From the NCBI GenBank assembly GCA_040756745.1, contig JBFLYO010000003.1:15072-79071 (forward strand): 64,000 nt of DNA, written 5' to 3'. The notes beneath the pieces are model-generated. The model had not been told where the DNA came from. It saw only the letters and a program-made list of their open reading frames with translations, and made no database searches. A program made the translations under genes and the position numbers. This DNA is from Bacteroidota bacterium. GTDB taxonomy: Bacteria; Bacteroidota; Ignavibacteria; UBA10030; UBA6906. Below, piece by piece: positions 25,618 through 56,782 of the stretch. Positions within the stretch are counted from its first letter, which is position 1. Every line of letters begins with the position of its first letter.

Positions 25618-26481
25618 ATGAACGCCAGATATGCAGCGATAGTCCTTGTTGCGATGGGAGCCCTCGGCGCCATCGCGCTCACAGGTTGTTACACTCAGTT
25701 CGGCACTCTTACCGAAGACAAGGAGCCCGGGGTCACGTCAGAGCCGGAGGAGTACGGGGAAGGAGTGACAGACGAAGAGTATGCCGAGGCACGGCAGCGG
25801 TTTTACTATGATTCGTATTATCCTGCTATCGATGTCGGGTTCTCGTTTGGGTGGGGCTATCCCTGGTACGGCTACCATCGTCCATGGTACGGCTACGGAT
25901 TTGGCTCCCCCTGGTATGGATACGGGTATCCCTGGTATTACGACCCGTTCTATTATGGCAATTACTATGGAGTCTATTCTCCATGGTACGTCGGGCCCTT
26001 CTACCGCGGCGGCTATTATTCTGATAGGGCACCGAGTGTGAACACGACCCGGAGGATCGGATCGACGAGGACGCTCGGCGGGACGCGCGGTTCCACGGAT
26101 TATCGGGGGACCTCCACCGAGTTCGCTCCGCTTCCGACGGGGAAGAGATCGAGTGGCACGGTGACCACGGGCTCATCCGCGCCGACGTCGGGCGGTCGGT
26201 CAGGGGTGAACACGGGCCGCAGGGGGACGGCGGGGGAGCGGCGGGATGGATCGCAGGGGCGCACGGTCAGCACTCCCCCAAAGGGAGGTTCGCGTGAGCA
26301 AGCGGCTCCTGCACCTTCTTCCGATACGCGACGAGGAAGTTCGGGTGGAAGCAGGACGCCGTCGTACACTCCACCACCTTCTTCTCCTCCTCCCTCAAGC
26401 GCTCCTTCTTCGGGGGGCAGCCGTGGCGGTGAAAGTCGCGGCGGAAGCGGTGGAGGCAACAGGGGCGGCGGCCGGCGGTAA
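25618..26481 (+). CDS. lipoprotein with Tyr/Trp/Gly-rich aromatic repeat block (PWYGY-type) and Ser/Gly/Arg/Pro-rich disordered tail
   Basis: RBS GGAGG before the ATG at 25618 and lipobox LTGC. The aromatic block is GWGYPWYGYHRPWYGYGFGSPWYGYGYPWYYDPFYYGNYYGVYSPWYVGPFY. The C-terminus is RGG/SGG-rich. Confidence 0.55.
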   Translation: MNARYAAIVLVAMGALGAIALTGCYTQFGTLTEDKEPGVTSEPEEYGEGVTDEEYAEARQRFYYDSYYPAIDVGFSFGWGYPWYGYHRPWYGYGFGSPWYGYGYPWYYDPFYYGNYYGVYSPWYVGPFYRGGYYSDRAPSVNTTRRIGSTRTLGGTRGSTDYRGTSTEFAPLPTGKRSSGTVTTGSSAPTSGGRSGVNTGRRGTAGERRDGSQGRTVSTPPKGGSREQAAPAPSSDTRRGSSGGSRTPSYTPPPSSPPPSSAPSSGGSRGGESRGGSGGGNRGGGRR

Positions 26482-30433: not shown

Positions 30434-31191
30434 GTGCCTCACTGTGCTCGGCGCGGCTCATCGCGAAGCTTCGCTCGGCGGAGTCGATCGTGGCATTTAC
30501 CGGTGCGGGCATGTCGGCGGAAAGCGGAGTCCCGACATTCCGCGGAACGGACGGCATCTGGGCCAGGTTCAAACCGGAAGAGCTGGCGAACATGGAAGCG
30601 TTCATGAGAAACCCCGCGCTGGTGTGGGAGTGGTACGCGGCGAGGAAGAAGATCATTGCGGAGGTCCAGCCCAACGCCGGCCATCGCGCGCTGGCCCGCA
30701 TGGAGGAGATCGTCCCGCGGTTCGCCATTATCACGCAGAACATTGATAACCTGCACCGCAGGGCCGGGAGCCGCACGGTCCACGAGCTGCACGGCAATAT
30801 CGAGCGGAACTACTGCATGAAGTGCGGCAAAGTCTACGGGAACGAGGATGTGCTCGGCCGAACCGGTCCGCTGGCGTGCAATGCCTGCGGCGGCTTGATC
30901 CGTCCCGACGTTGTCTGGTTCGGCGAGATGCTGCCGGAAGAGGAGTGGGACGCGTCGGTCCGTGCAGCGGAAGGGGCGGATCTGTTCCTCTCCATCGGAA
31001 CCTCCGGCGTCGTCTATCCGGCAGCGTCCATCCCGCTGATGGCCCGGCGGGCCGGTGCGTACATTGTGGAAATCAACCCCGAGCAAACACCGTTGACGCC
31101 GTATGTGGACGAGTTCCTTGAGGGAGCAGCAGGCAGCGTGCTGCCGGCGCTGGTCAAAGCCATGGCGGAGCTCAGGGAGAGCAAGGAGTAG
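30430..31191 (+). CDS. cobB: NAD-dependent protein deacylase (sirtuin, CobB family)
   Basis: GAGMSAESGVPTFRG, the QNIDNLH motif, a zinc-ribbon CxxC...CxxC and HG. The start overlaps the acylase stop (ATGA). Confidence 0.9.
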   Translation: MSASLCSARLIAKLRSAESIVAFTGAGMSAESGVPTFRGTDGIWARFKPEELANMEAFMRNPALVWEWYAARKKIIAEVQPNAGHRALARMEEIVPRFAIITQNIDNLHRRAGSRTVHELHGNIERNYCMKCGKVYGNEDVLGRTGPLACNACGGLIRPDVVWFGEMLPEEEWDASVRAAEGADLFLSIGTSGVVYPAASIPLMARRAGAYIVEINPEQTPLTPYVDEFLEGAAGSVLPALVKAMAELRESKE

Positions 31192-31194
31192 GCG

Positions 31195-31335
31195 GTAGGC
31201 AGAAGTCAGTAGGCAGAAATCAGAAGTCAGTAGGCAGAAATCAGAAGTCAGAAAGAAGCCCTAAACCTTAACCTTAATCTCAATCTCGATCTCAATCTCA
31301 ATCTCACTCTCGTTCTCAATGCCCCTCAAACGCTC
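31195..31335. repeat. Intergenic repeat block, family 1: GTAGGCAGAA in three copies (21-bp tandem unit GTCAGTAGGCAGAAATCAGAA), then CCTTAACCTTAA, then ATCTCAATCTCGATCTCAATCTCAATCTC
   Basis: Read directly from the sequence between the cobB stop and the pyk start. The same motifs recur at 32776-32884, 42440-42560, 43042-43100, 43340-43400, 47729-47815 and 47905-48003. Confidence 0.8.
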
Positions 31336-31344
31336 CCACCTGCT

Positions 31345-32781
31345 ATGACTGCGCAACCGAGCAGAACCCGGATTGTATGCACGCTTGGGCCTGCGTCGAG
31401 CAGCGTCGAGACGCTGACGGCGCTCATCGGGGCCGGGATGGACGTTGTGCGGCTGAACTTCTCGCACGGCACGCACGAGGAACACCGGGAGGCGCTGAGA
31501 AACGTCCGGGAAGCCGTGCGCGTGACCGGTCATGAAGTGGCGGTCCTCCAGGACCTCCAGGGACCGAAGATCAGAATCGGCGAACTGGAGGTGCCGTCGA
31601 TCGAGCTCCGTCAGGGAGAGGAATTCACGATCACGACGGACCCGGTCGTTGGCGGACGGGGGCGGGTCTCCACGACATATGCGGGGCTTCCTCACGATGT
31701 CCATCCGGGTGCGGATATCTTGCTCGATGATGGCCGGCTTCGGCTCCGGGTTCTCCGCGTTTGGGGAAATGATGTGGAGTGCGAGGTGATTGTCGGGGGA
31801 ACGCTCAGCTCCCACAAAGGGATAAACCTCCCGGGAGTAGCGGTCAGCGCGCCATCGTTCACGGACAAAGACCTGGATGACCTTGCGTTCGGGCTTGCCA
31901 GCGAGGTCGACTATCTCGCGCTCTCGTTCGTCAGGACGGCGGAAGACATCCGTCTCCTCCGTGCAGCAGCAGCACAGGCACCCCAGCATGCACGTATGCC
32001 GGTGATTGCGAAGATCGAAAAACCGCAGGCGGTAGCCAACATCGATGAGATCATTGCAGAGGCGGACGGAATCATGATTGCCCGCGGCGATCTGGGTGTA
32101 GAGCTTCCGCCGGAGGACGTCCCGGTTCTCCAGAAGATGATCATCAGGCGGTGCAACAACGCCGGCAAACCGGTGATCATCGCGACACAGATGTTGGAAT
32201 CCATGATTGCGAGCCCGATGCCGACACGGGCAGAGGCCAGCGACGTCGCCAATGCCGTGGTCGACGGGGGCGATGCGGTCATGCTGAGCGGCGAGACGTC
32301 GGTGGGAAAGTACCCCATTGACGCCGTTCGGATCATGGAGCGGATCATCCGGAAGGTCGAATCGGAACGGCTGGTGCGCCCCAGAATCCCCGCTGAACCC
32401 CGGTCGAGCGTAACAGACCGGCACGACGCCCTCGGCCGTTCGGCGTGTGTGCTTGCGGAACAGATGAGAGCGGCGGCGATCGTCACGGTGACCAACTCAG
32501 GCCAAACGGCGAGAGTGCTGGCGCGCTATAGGCCTGACCCGCAGATCATCGCCATCACCGACAGTCCAAGAACACTCCGGATGCTGAACATTGTCTGGGG
32601 GGTACGCGGGTTGCTGGTGGAGGGACTCGATGAAGACTCCGATCATGCGCTCGCCAGGGTGCAGGAACGGCTCGTGGCATCGGGTCTGGTGAAGCGGGGA
32701 GAATACATCGTGTTGCTTGCGGGGCAGCCGTTCTTCGCGAGGGGGGGGACGAATTTTATCAAGGTGGAAAAGATAGGTTAA
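31345..32781 (+). CDS. pyk: pyruvate kinase
   Basis: Canonical N-terminus (TRIVCTLGPASSSVETL...GMDVVRLNFSHG) and the MLSGETSVGKYP motif. Confidence 0.95.
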   Translation: MTAQPSRTRIVCTLGPASSSVETLTALIGAGMDVVRLNFSHGTHEEHREALRNVREAVRVTGHEVAVLQDLQGPKIRIGELEVPSIELRQGEEFTITTDPVVGGRGRVSTTYAGLPHDVHPGADILLDDGRLRLRVLRVWGNDVECEVIVGGTLSSHKGINLPGVAVSAPSFTDKDLDDLAFGLASEVDYLALSFVRTAEDIRLLRAAAAQAPQHARMPVIAKIEKPQAVANIDEIIAEADGIMIARGDLGVELPPEDVPVLQKMIIRRCNNAGKPVIIATQMLESMIASPMPTRAEASDVANAVVDGGDAVMLSGETSVGKYPIDAVRIMERIIRKVESERLVRPRIPAEPRSSVTDRHDALGRSACVLAEQMRAAAIVTVTNSGQTARVLARYRPDPQIIAITDSPRTLRMLNIVWGVRGLLVEGLDEDSDHALARVQERLVASGLVKRGEYIVLLAGQPFFARGGTNFIKVEKIG

Positions 32782-32884
32782 GGATAAGGTTAAGGTCAAG
32801 GTCGGTTGTCGCTTGAGGAGTGTGGATTGACAATTGTGGATTCCTCCCCTTAACCTTAACCTGCTCCATCCCTTAACCTTCTCA
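32776..32884. repeat. Family 1 inverted-repeat element (GGTTAAGGATAAGGTTAAGGTCAAGGTC ... CCCCTTAACCTTAACC ... CCCTTAACCTT) spanning the convergent pyk and STAS gene ends. Probable bidirectional terminator
   Basis: The arms are reverse-complementary AAGGTTAAGG/CCTTAACCTT runs about 40 bp apart. They overlap the stop codons of both flanking genes. Confidence 0.7.
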
Positions 32885-33205
32885 GTGCTTCACCCCCGCC
32901 TCCTGGATCTCAAACAACCTGTCCAGCATCGAGATCTTGAGCAGGCTGGTGACTTTCTTGTGGACGTGTACGAGCTTCACCCTCCCTCCATGTTCCTTCA
33001 TCTTCCGCTCGGCAATGAGGAGAGCGCTCAGACCGCTGCTGTCGCAGAAGTCCACTTCTGCGAGGTCGACAACGAGCGTTTCAACTTTCGGTTTGCAGAT
33101 GAGAAGAAACTCCCCCTTCAGTTCAGGGGCGACGGTGGAGTCGAGTTTCTTCTCCTTGAGTTTCAGCGTCGTGGACGCTCCGTTGTGCATGACTTCGAAC
33201 TTCAT
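32882..33205 (-). CDS. STAS-domain anti-sigma-factor antagonist (SpoIIAA-like)
   Basis: MKFEVMHNGASTTLKLKEKKLDS...VDLAEVDFCDSSGLSALL matches the SpoIIAA family. The start was chosen at MKFEV with an upstream GGAAGAGGG. Coordinates are taken from the ORF track (see the formatting note in the summary). Confidence 0.75.
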   Translation of the reverse strand: MKFEVMHNGASTTLKLKEKKLDSTVAPELKGEFLLICKPKVETLVVDLAEVDFCDSSGLSALLIAERKMKEHGGRVKLVHVHKKVTSLLKISMLDRLFEIQEAGVKH

Positions 33206-33765
33206 ACGCCCTCTTCCGCGAAGAACATCGTGAGACAATGCGCGAGCCGCTCGTAGGCATTTCCTCGGTGTGAGTCGGGGTCCAGTCGGACCTGGAAGTT
33301 ATAAAAAGTGTCTGCGTGCGGGTTGGCAAAGCCCGCGCGAATGCGCGCGTGACTTTCCCTACAAATATAGCCGGAGGGAAGGATGAAGTCAAGGTTAAGG
33401 TCCACGGCCAGGTCGTACTGACGGGCATGGACGCGGTCGATGACGACCTGGCGCGGCAGGAAGAACGGGTTCACCTCGTCCGGCGCAATCGTGATCACAC
33501 GGCTGCGGGGAAGAAGGCGTTCGAAGGAATCGCGGGAAAGCGTCGTGACCACGGTCATGTGTCCCTCCTCGAAGCGGGCCCGATACGGTGCGAGAAGCAC
33601 GAGATGATCGGCCCCGGCGGCAGGCCAGAGCGGCAGGATAATCAAAACCGACTCCGCTTCCGGGAGTGCGTGAGAAAACGAAATCACTTTCTCGCGGGAC
33701 TTTCGGTAACGGAATCGGGCCGCCAGCATGCCGACGGATCGGCGCAGAGATCGGAGCATCAACAC
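33202..33765 (-). CDS. hypothetical protein (no family recognised) between ligA and the STAS gene
   Basis: 187-aa ORF with a GTG start 1 nt after the ligA stop; its stop abuts the STAS start. No motif recognised. Confidence 0.4.
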   Translation of the reverse strand: MLMLRSLRRSVGMLAARFRYRKSREKVISFSHALPEAESVLIILPLWPAAGADHLVLLAPYRARFEEGHMTVVTTLSRDSFERLLPRSRVITIAPDEVNPFFLPRQVVIDRVHARQYDLAVDLNLDFILPSGYICRESHARIRAGFANPHADTFYNFQVRLDPDSHRGNAYERLAHCLTMFFAEEGV

Positions 33766-38783: not shown

Positions 38784-38847
38784 CAGCGCTAAGGTAGGAA
38801 AACGGGACGTAAAGAAAAAGAGGAGAGAGAGGAGAAAGAATTTCGGA

Positions 38848-38950
38848 AGGCGGAGTGCGGATTGCGGAACGGAAGTTCAGATGTGCGATTTGTGATTTCG
38901 GATGTGCCTTTACTTCATTCCGCAATCCGCGCTCCGCAATCCGCAATATA
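38848..38950. repeat. Family 2 palindromic element (GGCGGAGTGCGGATTGCGGAACGGAAG ... CATTCCGCAATCCGCGCTCCGCAATCCGCAATA) between the hybrid kinase start and the hup stop
   Basis: Imperfect inverted repeat about 100 bp long built from TGCGGATTGCGGA/TCCGCAATCCGCA units. Related copies are at 48455-48482 and 56692-56782. Confidence 0.7.
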
Positions 38951-41599: not shown

Positions 41600-42433
41600 A
41601 TGCGCAGACCAGTTATGGTTACAGTATTCGTTTCGACGACCTTTTGCAGCACCGCCTGGTGCGGGGGCGTTGATACTCTGGCAGCGAGCCGGCCGTCGGC
41701 AATCTCGAACATGGAGAAGGATGGTCTGACGTTTCTTCGAGGTGCAGGGCATATTTTCTCAGCACCCGGACGATGGGGGGGAGAGGATTGGTTGATGGCG
41801 GGCGCCGTTGGGGTGGGGACAGGAGGGGCAATGTTCCTGGACAACGACATGCGGGAGTTGATGCAAAGGAGTCAGAGCGGTGGGGCAGACAAGATCAGCG
41901 ACATTTCCGTCGAGTACGGTTCGGGCGTGAATATGCTCCTTCTTTCTGCCGGCGGATATGCAGCGGGGTTGATCTTTGAGGAGGACTGGCTACGTGAGAC
42001 GGCGATGCTGAGCGGGTCGGCGATACTGATTGCGGGTGTGGTGTCCACCGTGACGAAGGTTGTGGCCGGCAGGGCGCGCCCCTACACCGGCTTGGGATCA
42101 GGGATGTGGAGGCCGTTTTCGCTCAAGGTCGATTACGAGTCGTTCCCCTCGGGTCATGTGATCGTCGCGTTTGCAGTCAGCGGGGTGCTTGCCGAGCGGA
42201 TCGGGAATCCCTGGGCGACGGTCGGGTTGTACGGCCTCGCGGCGGCTACCGCCTGGTCGCGGATGTACACCGACCATCACTGGTTTTCGGACGTCATCCT
42301 CGCCGCGGCGATATCGGTGTCGGTGAGCAGGTCGCTAGTCCAATGGTATGAAGGGGAGAGCAAGGGGGAGAGTGATGAGGGGATTGGAATTGTGCCGATG
42401 CGTGGGGGGATCGGATTAATCCTGGTGTTCTGA
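41600..42433 (+). CDS. PAP2 family (type 2 phosphatidic acid phosphatase-like) membrane protein
   Basis: PAP2 motifs KVVAGRARP, PSGH and SRMYTDHHWFSDV. The start was chosen at MRRPVMV (41600), after the divergent dinG start. Confidence 0.75.
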   Translation: MRRPVMVTVFVSTTFCSTAWCGGVDTLAASRPSAISNMEKDGLTFLRGAGHIFSAPGRWGGEDWLMAGAVGVGTGGAMFLDNDMRELMQRSQSGGADKISDISVEYGSGVNMLLLSAGGYAAGLIFEEDWLRETAMLSGSAILIAGVVSTVTKVVAGRARPYTGLGSGMWRPFSLKVDYESFPSGHVIVAFAVSGVLAERIGNPWATVGLYGLAAATAWSRMYTDHHWFSDVILAAAISVSVSRSLVQWYEGESKGESDEGIGIVPMRGGIGLILVF

Positions 42434-42440
42434 AGAATAC

Positions 42441-42560
42441 CGCAGAGACGCAGAGTGATAGCCTGAACTCGAGCCCTGGATTCAGATTGAGGGGATGGGC
42501 CCTCACCCTCACCTCAAACTCAATCTTGATCTCAATCTGAATCTTCTCTGCGTCTCTGCG
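42441..42560. repeat. Nested palindromic family 1 element upstream of the DUF2147 gene
   Basis: Outer arms CCGCAGAGACGCAGAG / CTCTGCGTCTCTGCGCCTCTGCGG. Inner arms GATTCAGATTGAGGGG / CTCAAACTCAATCTTGATCTCAATCTGAATC. Confidence 0.7.
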
Positions 42561-42585
42561 CCTCTGCGGCAAAAATAACAAAGGG

Positions 42586-43041
42586 GTGTCTATGCGCTTT
42601 CTGCTGGTCCTTTCGCTCCGGATCCTGGGTTTAACGTTTGCCCGGGATGATCCTCGTGCCGGCGATGCGATTCTTGGCCAATGGCTCACGGCCGAGTCTG
42701 AATCACGGATCGAGATCTACAAATGCGACAGCATCACCTACTGCGGCCGGATTGTCTGGCTGCGCGACCCACTGAAGGAGGGGAAGCCGGTGGTGGACGA
42801 TAAGAACCCGGAGGAATCATTACGGAACCGGCCGGTGATGGGGCTGGAGCTGCTGAGGGGCTTCACCTACGACGGGGACGGCGTTTGGGCGGGCGGGAAG
42901 ATTTACGATCCGAAGAGCGGGAATGATTACAGTGCGAAGATGCGGCTGACCAGTGATTCAACGCTGAACCTTCGCGGGTATGTACTCATTCCGCTCTTTG
43001 GCAGGACTGAGGGGTGGGTGCGGGTGAAGAAAGCAGATTGA
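42586..43041 (+). CDS. DUF2147 domain-containing secreted protein
   Basis: Signal peptide. The pattern GQWLTAE...IEIYKCDSITYCGRIVWL...GGKIYDPKSGNDYSAKMRL...LNLRGY matches DUF2147. Confidence 0.7.
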   Translation: MSMRFLLVLSLRILGLTFARDDPRAGDAILGQWLTAESESRIEIYKCDSITYCGRIVWLRDPLKEGKPVVDDKNPEESLRNRPVMGLELLRGFTYDGDGVWAGGKIYDPKSGNDYSAKMRLTSDSTLNLRGYVLIPLFGRTEGWVRVKKAD

Positions 43042-43110
43042 GATTTAGATTGAGATTAAGATTAAGGTTAAGGGGTGAGGCAGGTTAAGGTTAAGGGGAT
43101 CAAGCTCGTC
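43042..43110. repeat. Family 1 repeat block (GATTGAGATTTAGATTGAGATTAAGATTAAGGTTAAGGGG...GGTTAAGGTTAAGGGG) immediately after the DUF2147 stop
   Basis: Direct reading of the sequence. It is followed by a perfect hairpin GGATCCGCC-ATCGA-GGCGGATCC at 43147-43169. Confidence 0.75.
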
Positions 43111-43440
43111 GGTCATTGCGAGCGCTCTTTGCGAAGTCCGCCTCTTGGATCCGCCATCGAGGCGGATCCCGGGGGGCGGACAATCTCTGGTTAGGCAGAC
43201 AGAGGTTGCTTCGTCGCTGAGAAACGCTCCTCGGTGACCGGAAAGTGAGACGGAATGTCTGGAGCCTGAACAAGTGGCCTCGGGCAGCGAAGCTATTTTT
43301 CTCCTTGACATTCTTTTTTATAGACGCAATGACAAAGTGCTCTGTGGTTATCCTCTCAACCATACTCTCAATCTTGATCTCAATCTCAACCGTAACCCTC
43401 GTTCCCCTCAGTCCGCTCCTTGTTCTGCACTGTTCCCACC

Positions 43441-44853
43441 TCACTTCTTCCGAAACGTCACCGCCCGCTCTGATGCGGTCTCCAGTTCCATGAGGAGTTG
43501 AACCAATTTGTTGTAGTCCTCAGGGGGGATAACCTGTGATGTGAGATCCAGCGTAGCCGTTAGGCGCACGTCGTCTCCATCCCGCTTGCAAGCAATTGAG
43601 CCTCGCCCACCTGCAAAACCGCGCATGGTGGTGTCTCTCGGAGACTCAGTTACCACGTACCCCTCTGGATGATGAATACGCCATTCGATCGTCATCGTGT
43701 ACGGTTCGGGAAACACGACGTCGTTCGTACGTGACGGGGCGAATAGCTCATCCCGCAGCTGCCGCAGCAGGTGATTGGCAGGTCGAACACTGACGTATTT
43801 TTCGATGGTGGTCACCGCTGCCCTTGAAGTTCCCTTCGCGGCAATACTGACAAGGCCCTCCTCAAAAAACGGCGAGTAGCGAAGATCGCCCGCGTTTTCA
43901 AGACATTTGCCCAACACTGCTCGCTCGAAAAACGACTCCAGGTCCTTTCCCTTCAGCGCATAACCCCCGTTGCGCCACTCTTCAACCGGAGCACCGCGTC
44001 CGCTCGTTGCCATGCTGTCGAGGACGGCGAACCGGTCGCTGAACCTGAGGTCATGTGACTCTCGGATCCAAGCCTCGCCTGCCCTTGCGGCAGGCGTGGT
44101 CACCGATTGACACCCGTCGTTGCTGATCACCATGGCGGTGATTCCCTTCAGGAACCATGGGGTGCTATAACGGTTCGGGATCGCCCTGTCGAAGTCATAC
44201 AGCCGTTCGACTCCCCCAATTCTTACCTGCACGCCGATCCTGTCAAACCATCGGACCGTCGGCACGCTTGTTTCATACACCCCCTTCCGCCTGTCGCGGA
44301 TCCACCCTGCCTTCGCGTCCACCTCCCATTGGCGTAGGATCTTGTAGAAGATCGCTGAAAGATCAGACGCATCGCCGCTCCCGTCATCGAAGACCTTATC
44401 CAGATCATCGACTAGCGGGTAGAGACTGTTCACAGGGTCAAGCACGATCGCATGTCGCAAGGCAGTATAAAGACTGTCAACGCGCGCAAAGGTAACCGGC
44501 GATCCTAATGGAGCAAGGCCCAGCTGCCTGATACGGGAGTCTTTGACGTGACCCTTGTCGAGGTTCTCCTCCCAGTATGTCTTCGCGAGCGAGGACCAGT
44601 CCGTAGAACCACGAAACGCCAGATCGGACACAAATGCCGTCATCATGGAGAGTTCTTCAAATGGCGGTGCGTACGGTTCGGCGGGGATCGCATTGAGATT
44701 TCTCACGCTCCAGAACCGTGTGTCTCCCGATCCGAGCGTCGTTGCGATTTCAGAGATCTTCGGCTCGCCGATGCGGTCGGCAGGGAAGCTGAATACCCGG
44801 ATTTCATCACGCGCCTGACCGGTAATCGCGAGATTCGAAAAGAGCACGGGCAT
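43441..44853 (-). CDS. DUF3858-like / degenerate transglutaminase-like C-terminal module protein (B2). It is in-frame with and 2 codons downstream of the B1 stop
   Basis: 470 aa with no signal peptide. The C-terminal region resembles the DUF3858 end of Bacteroidota DUF3857-TGase-DUF3858 proteins. It may be the C-terminal part of a gene interrupted by a TAG codon. Confidence 0.5.
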   Translation of the reverse strand: MPVLFSNLAITGQARDEIRVFSFPADRIGEPKISEIATTLGSGDTRFWSVRNLNAIPAEPYAPPFEELSMMTAFVSDLAFRGSTDWSSLAKTYWEENLDKGHVKDSRIRQLGLAPLGSPVTFARVDSLYTALRHAIVLDPVNSLYPLVDDLDKVFDDGSGDASDLSAIFYKILRQWEVDAKAGWIRDRRKGVYETSVPTVRWFDRIGVQVRIGGVERLYDFDRAIPNRYSTPWFLKGITAMVISNDGCQSVTTPAARAGEAWIRESHDLRFSDRFAVLDSMATSGRGAPVEEWRNGGYALKGKDLESFFERAVLGKCLENAGDLRYSPFFEEGLVSIAAKGTSRAAVTTIEKYVSVRPANHLLRQLRDELFAPSRTNDVVFPEPYTMTIEWRIHHPEGYVVTESPRDTTMRGFAGGRGSIACKRDGDDVRLTATLDLTSQVIPPEDYNKLVQLLMELETASERAVTFRKK

Positions 44854-44859
44854 GCGGTC

Positions 44860-45411
44860 CTAATAGTAGAAGATGCCGCTATAGGTCCGCGAAAAAGGCT
44901 CCGTCAGAGAATACTCTAGCTGGACGATGTCTCCGGGCATCAGGTCAGGAACTTTGAACAGCGCTTTGCGGGCGATCGGCTCGCCATGCTTGTCCTGGTG
45001 GGAGACAATCACCGACACATCGCGATCCGGCATCACGATCACTGACCCGTCCGGTTTCTGCACACGAGCCCTTGCGGCAAACCCCGCCGGAATCTCATTG
45101 CCGAAATACTCCTTATACTCAAACTCAAATGATCCCAGGCGACGCACGCCTGCCTCGTTGAAGACCTTCGCGATCAGCACCGTGGTCCGCGTCATGGCGA
45201 TCCCGACAAGATCGACGCCGCGGTACGTTATTTCACTTCTGTGGACGTTGAGAGACTGTTCCTTGAGAACAATCACCCCATCGGCGCTTGGGAAGGCGTT
45301 TTGCGTCAACTGCGCGGCGAAAGTTGCGTTGGGGAGAGGTCGCAGGAACTCCTGAGCAGTAGCAACCTGCAGCATAAGACACCAGAGCAGAACTGCGATC
45401 GGTGAGTTCAT
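44860..45411 (-). CDS. DUF3857 domain secreted protein (B1)
   Basis: Signal peptide (…QVATAQEF). A DUF3857-like region ends in the aromatic motif SGIFYY, followed by a TAG stop. Confidence 0.6.
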   Translation of the reverse strand: MNSPIAVLLWCLMLQVATAQEFLRPLPNATFAAQLTQNAFPSADGVIVLKEQSLNVHRSEITYRGVDLVGIAMTRTTVLIAKVFNEAGVRRLGSFEFEYKEYFGNEIPAGFAARARVQKPDGSVIVMPDRDVSVIVSHQDKHGEPIARKALFKVPDLMPGDIVQLEYSLTEPFSRTYSGIFYY

Positions 45412-45414
45412 GAG

Positions 45415-46428
45415 CTATCCTTTCTTCATGAGACGTATGGTCTGTGCCGCCTTGACGGCTTCGTTCGCGTAACTCCGGAGGAATTCGGATCGTGATCGTT
45501 CATCAAACGGGCCAGGGGGAAGAGCAAACCGATCCTCCCATCGGAATTCCCCATCGTGGCTTGGCGAGCGAAAGCCGGGGATTACTACCGCCACTGCGAC
45601 GCGCGCATAGCCCGGATAATAGAACACATCATTATGCTCAAGGCCAGGGTCTTCCTGAGGGAGGATTTTGTCGAACAGCTTGTCGAACCGGACATACACA
45701 TTCCCGCCGGCATGCCAGAGCGCATTGCGGAATCGGCATGCCGCGTTAATGACGAACGTTGTGCTGTCGACAGCCCAACTGACATCTGCAATAGTGATTT
45801 GCGAAGCGATATTTTTCTCGATCCACTTTGTGAGTGTTGCTTTCATTGACGTGTTGTTCATCCATCGACGTATGGTCAGAAAAGCGACGGCATACTGTCC
45901 TTGGAGCCTGACGGTAAGCGCCCCCATTAAATCGTCTTCGATTACCTGTAGGGTGCCGGAGACCGAGGCAAGGTTTTCAGGCAATTCAGCGATCGTTGCG
46001 AGGCTGGAGGCGCCCGTGTGGAGTATTAGTGCACGAGCGTTGACCACATCTTCGTCCGGCACGCCGATGGCCTCAGGGGGGTTCGTCCCATCGAACCAGT
46101 ATTCACGCCCCGGCGTCTGCCAGTGAACGATCATGTGATTGAACTGGTTGAGGGCGACCGGCAGGCCGTCGAAGAAAGGATGACCGTTCCCGCGCCAGCA
46201 GAGGGCGAGATCGGGATGGAGACCCGCTATGCGCGCCATCACGACCATGAGCGTTGAATAGTCTTTGCAATCGCCGTACCGGTGTCGGAACACGAATGGC
46301 GCCGCATTCGGTATGAACTCGCCGCCGCTGAGGTATGCCTGTTCGTATCGGATGTTTGACTGGCAGTAGCGGGCAATTGCGAACATTTTCTGTTCGTCGG
46401 TCATCTGATCGCTCACAATCTCCTGCAC
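45415..46428 (-). CDS. transglutaminase-like cysteine protease domain protein (A2). It has no own signal peptide and is in-frame continuation of A1 after a TAA
   Basis: Transglutaminase-like core YGDCKDYSTLMVVMARIAGL with downstream His/Asp. The 51 in-frame codons upstream (46429-46581) read as protein but contain no start codon. Confidence 0.65.
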   Translation of the reverse strand: MQEIVSDQMTDEQKMFAIARYCQSNIRYEQAYLSGGEFIPNAAPFVFRHRYGDCKDYSTLMVVMARIAGLHPDLALCWRGNGHPFFDGLPVALNQFNHMIVHWQTPGREYWFDGTNPPEAIGVPDEDVVNARALILHTGASSLATIAELPENLASVSGTLQVIEDDLMGALTVRLQGQYAVAFLTIRRWMNNTSMKATLTKWIEKNIASQITIADVSWAVDSTTFVINAACRFRNALWHAGGNVYVRFDKLFDKILPQEDPGLEHNDVFYYPGYARVAVAVVIPGFRSPSHDGEFRWEDRFALPPGPFDERSRSEFLRSYANEAVKAAQTIRLMKKG

Positions 46429-47250: not shown

Positions 47251-47572
47251 GCCGTCGCTCCTGAGTACGGGGAAACTTGTTATGGAAAAAACGGACTGCT
47301 CCCGCAGTGGATACCACTGCCGAGCATGTGGAGGCCGGGACCACACGTTCTCGCGCCGGGGGAGTTACAGCAAATGGCGCGTCAGGTTGCTACGAATCAA
47401 ATGGGAGAGCAGAATGCTGCAGCAGAATTACAGCGTCCGGCTTGCCGGGGGGTCGGACGCCGCAAAGACAACTCGCCGCAGAAAAACCACAGTAGAAGAT
47501 ACACCGCTCAGCAATTACTGTCAAGACGGAGCGGGATTATTCTGTCGATGTCACCCATGTCGGGATTCTTCA

Positions 47573-47606
47573 TAAAGAAAAAGGGCATCGGTTGTTGCGA
47601 TGCCCA
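47573..47606 (-). terminator. Rho-independent terminator on the minus strand (downstream of tRNA-Pro)
   Basis: The plus strand reads AAAGAAAAAGGGCATCGGTTGTTGCGATGCCC. On the minus strand this is an 8-bp GC stem (GGGCATCG/CGATGCCC) followed by TTTTTCTTT. Confidence 0.65.
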
Positions 47607-47728
47607 CGAGAAGAGATTTTGGTCGAAAGGATCAGGTCAAGGGGAGATTGCAGGTTGAGATCAAGACTCAGATCTTCGGATCTCCGTTGGGGCAGAATAT
47701 ATTCTGCGCTTACAGAGCCGATCTCTCC

Positions 47729-47815
47729 CTACTGACTTCTGCCTACTCCCCGCTTCTCCGTTCGCCCTACCTCCCTACCCCATACCTCCTTACCCCCTAC
47801 CTCTTTCTTCTTTAC
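47729..47815. repeat. Family 1 repeat block on the opposite strand: reverse complement of GTAGGCAGAAGTCAGTAG, followed by (CCTAC[C])n runs
   Basis: CTACTGACTTCTGCCTAC (47729-47746) is the exact reverse complement of the 18-mer GTAGGCAGAAGTCAGTAG at 31195-31212. It is followed by CCCTACCTCCCTACCCCATACCTCCTTACCCCCTACCTC. Confidence 0.75.
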
Positions 47816-47822
47816 TGCTCTG

Positions 47823-47896
47823 TCGGAGCGGGGGGATTTGAACCCCCGACCCCCTGAACCCCATTCAGGTGCGCTACCGGGCTGCGCTACGCTCCG
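47823..47896 (-). tRNA. tRNA-Pro (anticodon GGG)
   Basis: The reverse complement folds as a cloverleaf. The acceptor stem is CGGAGCG/CGCTCCG, the D-stem GCGC/GCGC, the anticodon stem CCTGA/TCAGG with loop ATGGGGT (U33, G37), and the T-arm GGGGG-TTCAAAT-CCCCC. The discriminator is A and CCA is not encoded. Confidence 0.85.
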
Positions 47897-47964
47897 AAAT
47901 ATAAAGTTGAGGATAAGGATAAGGTTAAGGGGACAAGTCGCGACGCCACATCATTCCTTCTTTT

Positions 47965-48003
47965 CCTTAACCTTAACCTTAACCTTAACCTTAACCTTAA
48001 CCT
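47965..48003. repeat. (CCTTAA)6 hexanucleotide microsatellite (family 1) overlapping the 3' end of the merR-like gene
   Basis: CCTTAACCTTAACCTTAACCTTAACCTTAACCTTAACCT is read directly. It is preceded by GAGGATAAGGATAAGGTTAAGGGG at 47909-47932. Confidence 0.9.
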
Positions 48004-48380
48004 ATCTTCTTCAACAACTCCTGCAAAAACTGCTTCGTCTCCTCCACGTCCGCGCGGAGCTGCTCGTCTTTGATTTTTGCGCGGGACTTCGGCGCGTCGA
48101 TGAGCTCGAGCTGCTCCCCCGTGTCCCCCTCCGGCGTGTAACTCTTCAGCACCTGCTTTGCCCCCTCAATCGTGTACCGCTCGTCCCGCAGCAGCTTCTT
48201 GATATAGAGGATCAGCTTAATGTCCCGGTTTGTGTAAATCCGGTTCCCCGCCCTGTTCTTCTGGGGCTTCAGATGCTCAAACTCCGACTCCCAGTACCGC
48301 AGCACGTACTGCTCGAGATCGGTGATCTTCGCCACCTCGCTGATCGAGTAATACAGCTTCTTGATGCCAAGCGATTTCAT
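47997..48380 (-). CDS. MerR family transcriptional regulator
   Basis: N-terminal MerR HTH (YSISEVAKITDLEQYVLRYWESEF) and a C-terminal coiled coil. Confidence 0.75.
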   Translation of the reverse strand: MKSLGIKKLYYSISEVAKITDLEQYVLRYWESEFEHLKPQKNRAGNRIYTNRDIKLILYIKKLLRDERYTIEGAKQVLKSYTPEGDTGEQLELIDAPKSRAKIKDEQLRADVEETKQFLQELLKKIG

Positions 48381-48482
48381 CGCGCGCTAGAGCCCAATAT
48401 ACCACGTCAAGCTACGAAAAACATGTCTGACTTGCAACCGACGCCGGCCGACAGTTCCGCAATTCGCATTCCGCAATCCGCA

Positions 48483-49040
48483 TTATTTTCTCGTCCTGCT
48501 CTTCGACAGCTTGACATCGATCTCCTTCATGCGCTTCAGCTCCTGCTGTACCTGCTGCAGGTCGGCTTCAAGATCCTGCAGGCGCCGCATGTCGGTCATG
48601 ATGGTGCCGCTCTGCCTCTTGGCGAGAGTCGTCAGGCTGTCGACCGAAGCGGTCTTCCGGGCAAGACTCTCCTGCAGCGTCCTCACCCGGCGAAGGAGGG
48701 AGACGAACATCTGGAAATGCTCACGGTCCGCTTTCTTCATCGGGAGATTGAGACACGCCGTGAACCAGTAGAGGGCGAGACTGTCGTTTCGCGCCGGGTT
48801 GAACTCGCTCGCATAGAGCAGGGCAGCCTTCCGCGCGGCAACCGGGAAGGCCGTTGATTGCGGAAATTCTGTCGCCACCACGACATAATGCTCGGCCGCA
48901 CCCTTGAGCGCCATCTCCTGCTCAAGGCTGTCGGCGAGCCGCATGTGATAGTTGACCAGATTCGCCGTCCGGCTTCCTTCGGTCCCCCCGCAGCCGGCAA
49001 GAACGCTCACGAGCAGCACGCCTGCGATCCATCGGTTCAT
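48483..49040 (-). CDS. lipoprotein with coiled-coil C-terminus, function unknown
   Basis: Signal peptide with lipobox LAGC. The first gene... (see finding) it is the last gene of a minus-strand operon. Confidence 0.55.
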   Translation of the reverse strand: MNRWIAGVLLVSVLAGCGGTEGSRTANLVNYHMRLADSLEQEMALKGAAEHYVVVATEFPQSTAFPVAARKAALLYASEFNPARNDSLALYWFTACLNLPMKKADREHFQMFVSLLRRVRTLQESLARKTASVDSLTTLAKRQSGTIMTDMRRLQDLEADLQQVQQELKRMKEIDVKLSKSRTRK

Positions 49041-56691: not shown

Positions 56692-56782
56692 GTGAAGCAC
56701 ATTCAATTCGGATTGCGGATTGCGAAGTGCGGAATATTCCGCAATCCACACTCCGCAATCCGCAATGCTGAGATTGCTTCAC
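56692..56782. repeat. Family 2 palindromic element between the ECF sigma stop and the cyc2-like gene start
   Basis: Outer arms GTGAAGCA...TGCTTCAC. Inner imperfect palindrome CGGATTGCGGATTGCGAAGTGCGGAATATTCCGCAATCCACACTCCGCAATCCG. Confidence 0.75.

Follow-up and report, generated by a model that had tools for sequence, protein, structure and literature searches.

A 64,000-nucleotide stretch of DNA from an uncultured Bacteroidota bacterium (contig JBFLYO010000003.1; the whole stretch is hereafter called the window) carries, in the gap between cobB and pyk (31195-31335) and in several further gaps, short motifs that recur in both orientations. The finding is a fresh example of known, still poorly understood intergenic simple-sequence repeats. 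The motifs are arranged in arrays of 6-, 7- and 8-nt units which are probably long simple-sequence repeats (LSSR), or of the kind described as short tandemly repeated repetitive (STRR) sequences, with a slippage-type origin in place. The repeated motifs are real and far above chance, and the arrays are, by comparison with relatives, recent gains of the source lineage. All array counts for this lineage refer to the 64-kb window alone.

The focal gap between cobB, whose product has a SIR2 Pfam match, and pyk, whose product is 100% identical to MEW6509706.1, extends over 153 nt (31192-31344) and is filled by two arrays. Motif A of the initial annotation is a plus-strand array of ten heptamers of the CAGTAGG/CAGAAGT/CAGAAAT type at 31186..31255, detected by Tandem Repeats Finder (TRF) at periods 7 and 21, with the units GAGTAGG, CGGTAGG, CAGAAGT, CAGTAGG, CAGAAAT, CAGAAGT, CAGTAGG, CAGAAAT, CAGAAGT and CAGAAAG. 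Its first unit holds the cobB stop codon TAG (31189-31191), and the array contains a perfect 21-nt higher-order repeat present 2.5 times (TRF, 100% match). Four bases further on, a plus-strand hexamer array of ten units in one register (31260..31319; sequence and TRF) reads CCTAAA, CCTTAA, CCTTAA, TCTCAA, TCTCGA, TCTCAA, TCTCAA, TCTCAC, TCTCGT, TCTCAA; it is nearly G-free and ends 25 nt upstream of the pyk ATG (31345). Motifs B and C, which had been counted next to A as separate types, share this register and are therefore variants within a single hexamer array. The minimum free energy obtained for 31192-31340 is -15.8, whereas its shuffles average -23.0 (z +2.2; z-scores here and below are relative to shuffled sequences), and 200 of the 200 shuffles of the focal element folded as well or better. 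Together the two arrays form an unstructured 153-nt spacer ahead of pyk.

Recurrence was assessed against dinucleotide-preserving shuffles of the window. AAGGTTAAGG was found 13 times as an exact match versus 0.00 expected, GAGATTGAGAT 12 times with at most one mismatch versus 1.48 expected, and GTAGGCAGAARTCAG 4 times versus 0.14 expected, the reverse-complement copy at 47732-47746 being counted. TRF reported periods of 6, 7, 8 and 21, copy numbers between 2.5 and 7.7 and a top score of 104, and together with the repeat search it recovered arrays at every locus listed in the initial annotation. The intergenic placement claimed there is likewise borne out: by a crude gene call based on G+C content at third codon positions (GC3), all the listed arrays lie in gaps. 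This holds for 10 of 10 arrays in a window estimated from the gene calls to be roughly 90% coding, every heptamer and octamer array, and the hexamer arrays of the window too, sitting between called genes. The exception is a lone AAGGTTAAGG at 33391-33400, which is a single copy within an open reading frame (ORF), is translated D-L-N-L-D and was excluded from the family. The claim of an AT-richer composition in a 65% GC genome needs correction in two respects, since the window measures 60.4% G+C, and the hexamer and A-type arrays are indeed AT-richer (26-43% G+C), whereas the octamer and TCCGCAA arrays (50-67%) are not.

Hexamer arrays were found both singly and as inverted pairs. In the convergent gap between pyk and the STAS gene, sequence, TRF and folding define an inverted pair at 32775..32880, with an AGGTTA-type arm at 32775-32804, a CCTTAA-type arm at 32845-32880 and a unique 40-nt loop between them; the left arm opens in the final codon and stop of pyk (GGT TAA, 32776-32781), and the STAS stop lies 3 nt from its array. 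Another pair, defined by TRF and folding between a MerR-family gene and tRNA-Pro (47905..48003), combines an AGGATA/AGGTTA arm at 47905-47933 with a perfect (CCTTAA)6.5 at 47965-48003 (TRF 100% match, score 78). The MerR stop TAA (47997-47999, minus strand) falls inside the perfect array, the gene ending GGT TAA in (GGTTAA)6.5. After the DUF2147 gene, a plus-strand array at 43035..43099 (sequence, TRF and repeat search), reading AGATTG AGATTT AGATTG AGATTA AGATTA AGGTTA ... GGTTAA GGTTAA, begins at the DUF2147 stop (GAT TGA, 43039-43041) and is 92% complementary to 31266-31304. A further plus-strand array of CTCAAT / CTTGAT type (43353..43392) is inverted relative to it, and the two enclose a unique core of ~250 nt (about 43100-43345). 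Similarity between loci of the window comes in 36-39-nt stretches at about 92% identity. Motif search and blastn located a second copy of the A-type heptamers (GTAGGCAGAAGTCAGTAG) on the minus strand within the downstream tRNA-Pro trailer (47729..47746), where degenerate GAGATT-like hexamers also lie at about 47645-47672; the reverse-complement match noticed there by eye as an 18-mer was extended by blastn to 27 nt at 92.6%.

Octamers and a further heptamer family occur in the same kind of setting. The gap between the PAP2 and DUF2147 genes holds a long plus-strand hairpin (42441..42568; TRF and folding), the outer stem of which consists of octamer repeats (CGCAGAGA / TCTCTGCG), while the inner stem includes CTCAAT-type hexamers at 42513-42544. 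In an Acidobacteriota locus (L097, 3288-3344), a unit resembling this octamer (CACAGAGA / CTGTGTCT) is likewise arranged as an inverted pair. Directly 3' of the tRNA-Pro gene (47822-47896, minus strand) stands a plus-strand array of five octamers, CCCTACCT (47765..47803). The TCCGCAA / CGGATTG family has three loci in the window, with 50-62% G+C and an architecture like that of the hexamer arrays: inverted CGGATTG / TCCGCAA arrays at 38840..38947 (TRF, repeat search and folding) and further copies at 48455-48484 and 56704-56767 (repeat search). In two of the copies the arrays form an inverted pair that is close to perfect and folds very strongly (z -8.1 and -6.2).

A common feature of these arrays is their position at stop codons. 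The stops of cobB, pyk, DUF2147 and MerR all fall within the first units of the adjoining arrays, and pyk and the MerR gene share the ending AAGATAGGTTAA followed by GG. The idea that an array had overwritten the C-terminus of MerR was rejected; the stop position is native, because the relatives' proteins are also 127 aa long and end in LLKK[L/I]x. The C-termini of pyk and MerR are both of native length.

Folding separates the arrays into two structural classes, inverted array pairs forming long imperfect hairpins and single arrays being unfolded. To the former belong 32765-32890 (z -4.3 on the minus strand and -1.9 on the plus strand), 47897-48010 (z -4.3), 42436-42572 (-57.7 kcal/mol, z -5.6), 38835-38950 (z -8.1) and 56700-56770 (z -6.2). 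The segment 43030-43400 gives a 370-nt structure closed by its two inverted arrays (z -7.7), and 43035-43099 alone is unstructured (z +0.7). In the hexamer arrays, G is nearly missing from one strand. The statement that the elements form hairpins and span convergent gene ends is thus accurate for a part of them: some loci fold strongly and the focal 31195-31335 forms no hairpin, while 32776-32884 does span convergent gene ends and no other locus lies between convergent protein genes. In a search of the whole window with Rfam 15 at gathering score, tRNA-Pro alone reached the threshold; relaxed scans of 42400-43500 and 47300-48500 returned only sub-threshold chance matches to eukaryotic microRNA and long non-coding RNA models.

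The comparison with relatives proposed in the initial annotation covered the nearest ones available, and their orthologous gaps turned out to be free of the arrays. These relatives have 79-81% pyk identity or 92-94% MerR identity and have kept the gene order; homologues further removed (67-75% pyk, 88-93% MerR identity) carry the labels Bacteroidota, Ignavibacteria or Ignavibacteriae. Between cobB and pyk the relatives have a 4-nt overlap (3 of 5 relatives) or 44-46 nt, as compared to 153 nt in the window. The corresponding values are 9-59 vs. 100 nt for pyk/STAS, 23 nt in one relative vs. 152 nt for PAP2/DUF2147, and 13 to about 50 vs. 100 nt for MerR/tRNA-Pro; the gap right of DUF2147, a synteny break, was left out of the comparison. 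About 100 kb of the relatives' DNA contained 0 such arrays vs. 10 in the 64-kb window. Since the relatives share the gene order and their gaps are short and repeat-free, the arrays are recent gains of the source lineage.

The same comparison provided some observations on the surroundings of the arrays. At 43441-46428 (minus strand), beyond the synteny break, three consecutive ORFs match Transglutaminase-core, DUF3857 and DUF3858, and a relative has an Rce1-like neighbour there. In two relatives (L154, 10571-11596; L155, 10567-11643) a phage-integrase gene directly follows the MerR-tRNA-Pro pair, which makes tRNA-Pro look like an integration site; in this place the tRNA-Pro trailer of the window has repeat arrays and a canonical terminator. 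The contig of the closest MerR relative (L151, 97% identity) stops 13 nt past the stop codon, in GGGCGATGGGGCGA (1277-1292), which may be a different repeat breaking the assembly at the same position. Elsewhere in the window, a 1.09-kb apparent gap of the crude gene call contains a probable lipoprotein gene (25618-26480, plus strand) and not non-coding DNA; its low-complexity product has aromatic-rich GYPWYGY-type repeats and a Gly/Ser/Arg-rich tail.

The same units turned out to be present in unrelated bacteria, as ascertained by exact-pattern search with crude ORF calls at the foreign loci. The A-type 18-mer GTAGGCAGAAGTCAGTAG occurs at 30 loci in GTDB representative genomes from at least 10 phyla, the record titles naming Bacteroidales, Neomarinimicrobiota, Acidobacteriota, Planctomycetota (Humisphaera), NC10, Chloroflexi, a cyanobacterium (Leptolyngbya), Thermodesulfobacteriota, Omnitrophota and others. 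With one or two exceptions, the loci are in-phase heptamer arrays (CAGTAGG, CAGAAGT, CAGTAGA etc.) with a median of 5 units. They lie at gene boundaries, often with a stop codon abutting and often with an inverted partner, and the neighbouring gaps contain other 7-, 8- and 9-nt arrays, again often as inverted pairs. CAGTAGG/CAGAAGT arrays were seen among the fetched loci L094-L123 (e.g., L098 5551-5714, L096 and L121), on five contigs of the Neomarinimicrobiota metagenome-assembled genome (MAG) CSMAG_2876, where they reach 25 units and show a super-period of 21 nt, and on four contigs of a Humisphaera MAG, two of them as hairpin pairs. One such array is found on the viral contig IMGVR_UViG_3300025030_000139 (L093 2889-2920, 62% G+C), apparently between two genes, so the vocabulary is not confined to cellular chromosomes.

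The 22-mer across the B-C junction was found at 27 metagenome loci, 25 of them distinct, with 35-61% G+C. With few exceptions these are (AAYCTY)n arrays containing 0-5% G, and downstream of 13 of the 25 distinct loci a same-strand ORF starts within 100 nt. With the focal hexamer stretch, the metagenome contig L136 agrees in 40 of 41 positions, as compared to 92% for the sister copy in the window. At one locus (L139 882-923) a long ORF, which to judge by its sequence apparently encodes a nucleotide-sugar epimerase/reductase, contains an in-frame (AACCTT)-type array that inserts N-L-N-L-D-L-N-L-N-L. Modules A and B/C did not occur together anywhere in 344 kb of foreign loci. Co-travel of the two was rejected on this ground, and the composite element of the initial annotation is better described as two independent, merely adjacent arrays. 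A general avoidance of start codons was also rejected, as bystander arrays such as AATGTGCT and GAGGATG contain ATG or GTG. The pattern AAGGTTAAGG N{0,30} AAGGTTAAGG proved non-specific, since most of its 82 viral matches were due to chance or to microsatellites of giant viruses; in viral contigs, the composite pattern AGATTGAGATT N{0,20} AAGGTTAAGG matched by chance only, in coding DNA. When the full text of the literature was searched for the unit sequences, nothing came up except unrelated primer and small interfering RNA matches.

The initial annotation had proposed a lineage-specific family similar to repetitive extragenic palindromic (REP) sequences or miniature inverted-repeat transposable elements (MITE). 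On this reading the A/B/C composites would be copies of a non-autonomous element that owes its spread to a transposase or to a tyrosine transposase of the REP-associated kind (RAYT). The copies in both orientations in seven gaps, the 36-39-nt stretches at about 92% identity between loci and the array-free orthologous gaps of relatives agree with such a family, as do the segment 43030-43400, which looks bounded by inverted arrays, and the GTAG in the A unit, the tetranucleotide at the head of E. coli REPs. However, neither unit length nor boundary is conserved: a repeat search of the window recovered no fixed repeat unit, the stems being tandem arrays of variable length. The inter-array sequence is unique, as no second copy of the loops, of the 43100-43345 core or of the tRNA trailer was found in the window or any fetched locus. 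No target-site duplication is visible, and for 43030-43400, with its inverted arrays and 250-nt core, the MITE reading was rejected on these two grounds. The 10 neighbouring proteins scanned include no transposase or Y1 gene and are all products of ordinary housekeeping genes. Moreover, A and B/C part company in the foreign loci, and the similarity between loci is no proof of transposition or common descent, because unrelated organisms give equal or better matches. A mobile family of this type is thus very unlikely. A different possibility is that the inverted arrays are selected bidirectional, hairpin-only transcription terminators for convergent or adjacent genes. Strong hairpins do lie exactly at gene ends (32765-32890, 47897-48010, 42436-42572 and 38835-38950; z -4.3 to -8.1), the pyk/STAS gap holds no other terminator-like structure, and Xanthomonas transcripts start or stop more often at heptamer repeats forming G-quadruplexes (G4) than at non-G4 controls (PMC4692102). 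Nevertheless, a scan for a hairpin plus T-run found no U tract after any array hairpin, although it reports canonical hairpin+U terminators elsewhere in the window (e.g., 47605-47583 in the tRNA trailer, minus strand); the focal element and 43035-43099 are unfolded, and the relatives do without such structures at the same gene ends. Selected terminators seem unlikely, and of the terminator role suggested earlier only a weak form survives, plausible for the hairpin subset and hard to reconcile with the missing U tracts and the unusually unstructured focal element.

Binding of a trans-acting factor has also to be considered. The arrays might be arrays of binding sites through which the flanking genes are controlled transcriptionally or post-transcriptionally, as has been proposed for TAACTGA repeats, the candidates being ribosomal protein S1, a cold-shock protein, a CsrA-like regulator or Rho on RNA, or a DNA-binding protein. 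The unit vocabulary, restricted yet cross-phylum, would fit this, and so would the G-free hexamers, with their preference for the sense strand just before starts (seen at 13 of 25 foreign loci and, in the window, at pyk and DUF2147). Rho and S1 prefer C-rich, G-poor, unstructured RNA. In Nostoc reporters, deletion of heptamer repeats altered the responses of the recO promoter (bioRxiv 10.1101/2022.06.06.494920). On the other hand, the factor remains a list of candidates, unit sequences vary between arrays and genomes, the flanking genes are unrelated housekeeping genes, and any such role must be dispensable because relatives lack the arrays; we consider this option quite improbable. It is distinctly doubtful, too, that the CAGTAGG/CAGAAGT heptamers and G-free AAYCTY hexamers shared by at least 10 phyla with 35-68% G+C reflect an unrecognised common mechanism and not independent slippage. 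Such a mechanism could consist in the selection or binding of the units by a conserved factor, or in templated copying, possibly borne by phages or horizontal gene transfer, one array being on a viral contig. In that case the arrays would have a function as insulators of translation and transcription, with stops in all three frames within 21 nt and with CCTTAA, AATCTC, CAGTAGG and CAGAAGT units that lack start codons. Finally, the arrays could be an assembly artefact, as the source is a MAG and such repeats are frequent breakpoints in contigs from relatives and from other genomes with arrays. Against this, the arrays have unique flanks and intact syntenic ORFs around them, and with 24-70 nt they are below typical short-read length. 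MAGs assembled into long contigs (a 5.6-Mb chromosome; contigs of 2.4 and 14.3 Mb) also contain arrays of this kind, as does the genome of an isolate, Leptolyngbya sp. BC1307, so an artefact is hardly credible.

Duplication in place is therefore preferred as the origin of the arrays. Perfect and evidently recent expansions, the (CCTTAA)6.5 array at 100% and the 21-nt unit x2.5 at 100% (TRF), together with graded unit variants, look like the signature of this process. Short units would be tandemly duplicated through replication slippage or unequal exchange, and mutation of a unit followed by its re-duplication would lead to graded series like CCTTAA>TCTTAA>TCTCAA. Units probably reach other gaps through template switching or gene conversion from array to array, and the shared AAGATAGGTTAA-plus-GG ending of pyk and MerR hints at such copying. 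Arrays may nucleate at or beside stop codons, since a 6-8-nt duplication there spares the ORFs, and would persist only outside genes. On RNA, inverted pairs may act as 3'-end barriers, stabilisers or weak terminators, and single arrays as open, G-poor, structure-free spacers with repeated stop codons, which a heptamer array places in all three frames over a length of 21 nt and which the hexamers supply as in-frame tandem stops. The focal arrays would then uncouple pyk from cobB and give pyk an unstructured leader. The origin by slippage, the transfer of units from locus to locus and all effects on function are inferred. Several points weigh against this explanation as a whole. Slippage alone leaves the recurrence of a few units across the gaps of the window and across phyla unexplained, and a constraint or a copying process is needed in addition. 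The shared ending of pyk and MerR could mean that an array was pasted in and not locally grown. The array hairpins are without U tracts.

These results have some practical consequences. In annotation, such gaps should be labelled as simple-sequence repeat arrays and not as mobile elements, and sequence matches between arrays must not be counted as homology. An uncultured Ignavibacteria-like lineage of Bacteroidota joins the scattered set of array-rich bacteria. Any explanation of these arrays must cover the starts at stop codons, the hairpins of inverted arrays, the G-poor spacer between cobB and pyk, and the identical units across phyla. The presence of the same units beside stop and start codons in many unrelated phyla is an intriguing loose end. 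As the function of such repeats is still unsettled in the literature (PMC4679880, PMC4692102, bioRxiv 10.1101/2022.06.06.494920), a tractable array-bearing organism would be worth testing.

Several known systems resemble the arrays of the window to a different extent. Intrinsic terminators have in common with them a stable hairpin just past the stop codon, but the array stems are 30-50 nt long, AT-rich and imperfect and carry no U tract. REP sequences, bacterial interspersed mosaic elements (BIME) and MITEs are likewise short, dispersed, intergenic, found in both orientations and able to place hairpins at gene ends; the window arrays differ from them in having no conserved palindrome, core or fixed-sequence terminal inverted repeats. 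REPs are many near-identical copies of a conserved imperfect palindrome of about 20-40 nt, whereas the stems in the window are tandem arrays of variable copy number.

Rehm et al. (2015, PMC4692102) described Xanthomonas GGGAATC repeats, of which each genome has 70-75 convergent inverted pairs able to form stem-loops. Those downstream of ORFs are strongly biased to positions at or over the stop codon, and the repeats are not conserved between related species. Together with the Nostoc GGGGA(C/T)T repeats, they resemble the window arrays in being intergenic heptamer arrays with inverted pairs and a stop-codon bias, and convergent pairs of the Xanthomonas type were found at 32775-32880, 47905-48003, 38840-38947, 56704-56767 and 42441-42568 (z -4.3 to -8.1). 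Their units are G-rich and form G-quadruplexes, in contrast to the window arrays, which are nearly G-free on one strand; no G3 runs, as a G-quadruplex would need, are present in the CAGTAGG, CAGAAGT, CCTTAA, TCTCAA and TCCGCAA units. In Nostoc, deletion of heptamer repeats upstream of recO changed reporter expression (bioRxiv 10.1101/2022.06.06.494920).

MacGregor (2015, PMC4679880) reported TAACTGA repeats in Beggiatoaceae, cyanobacteria and some Bacteroidetes, mostly just before start codons, with shorter, repeat-free gaps in relatives and with inverted pairing in 1 of 170 repeat sets. They are similar to the window arrays in being intergenic, stop-carrying, often sense before starts, mixed with other heptamers and spread over distant phyla; they differ in unit sequence and in the rarity of inverted pairs. 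In a Caldilineaceae locus (L120), CAGTTAT, the reverse complement of TAACTGA, adjoins CAGTAGG-type units. The cyanobacterial STRR sequences, according to Mazel et al. (1990, as cited in PMC4692102), are tandemly amplified heptanucleotides dispersed in non-coding DNA. They have other units and belong to another phylum, and because STRR is a cyanobacterial label, the window arrays can be assigned to them by analogy only.

The closest likeness is to LSSR, which, as summarised in PMC4679880, Mrazek, Guo and Shah (2007) described as sporadic in bacteria, with units of 5-11 nt, heptamers being the commonest, and with slippage as the proposed origin. The window differs from them in mixing hexamer, heptamer and octamer arrays within one gap, in its many inverted pairs and in its host, an uncultured Ignavibacteria-like Bacteroidota MAG. 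As in LSSR, its short units are iterated head-to-tail over lengths greater than chance allows (TRF, shuffles), and none of its heptamer and octamer arrays, with unit lengths that three does not divide, lies outside non-coding DNA. The prominence of heptamers, the mainly intergenic location and the occurrence of array-rich genomes beside array-poor relatives complete this resemblance.

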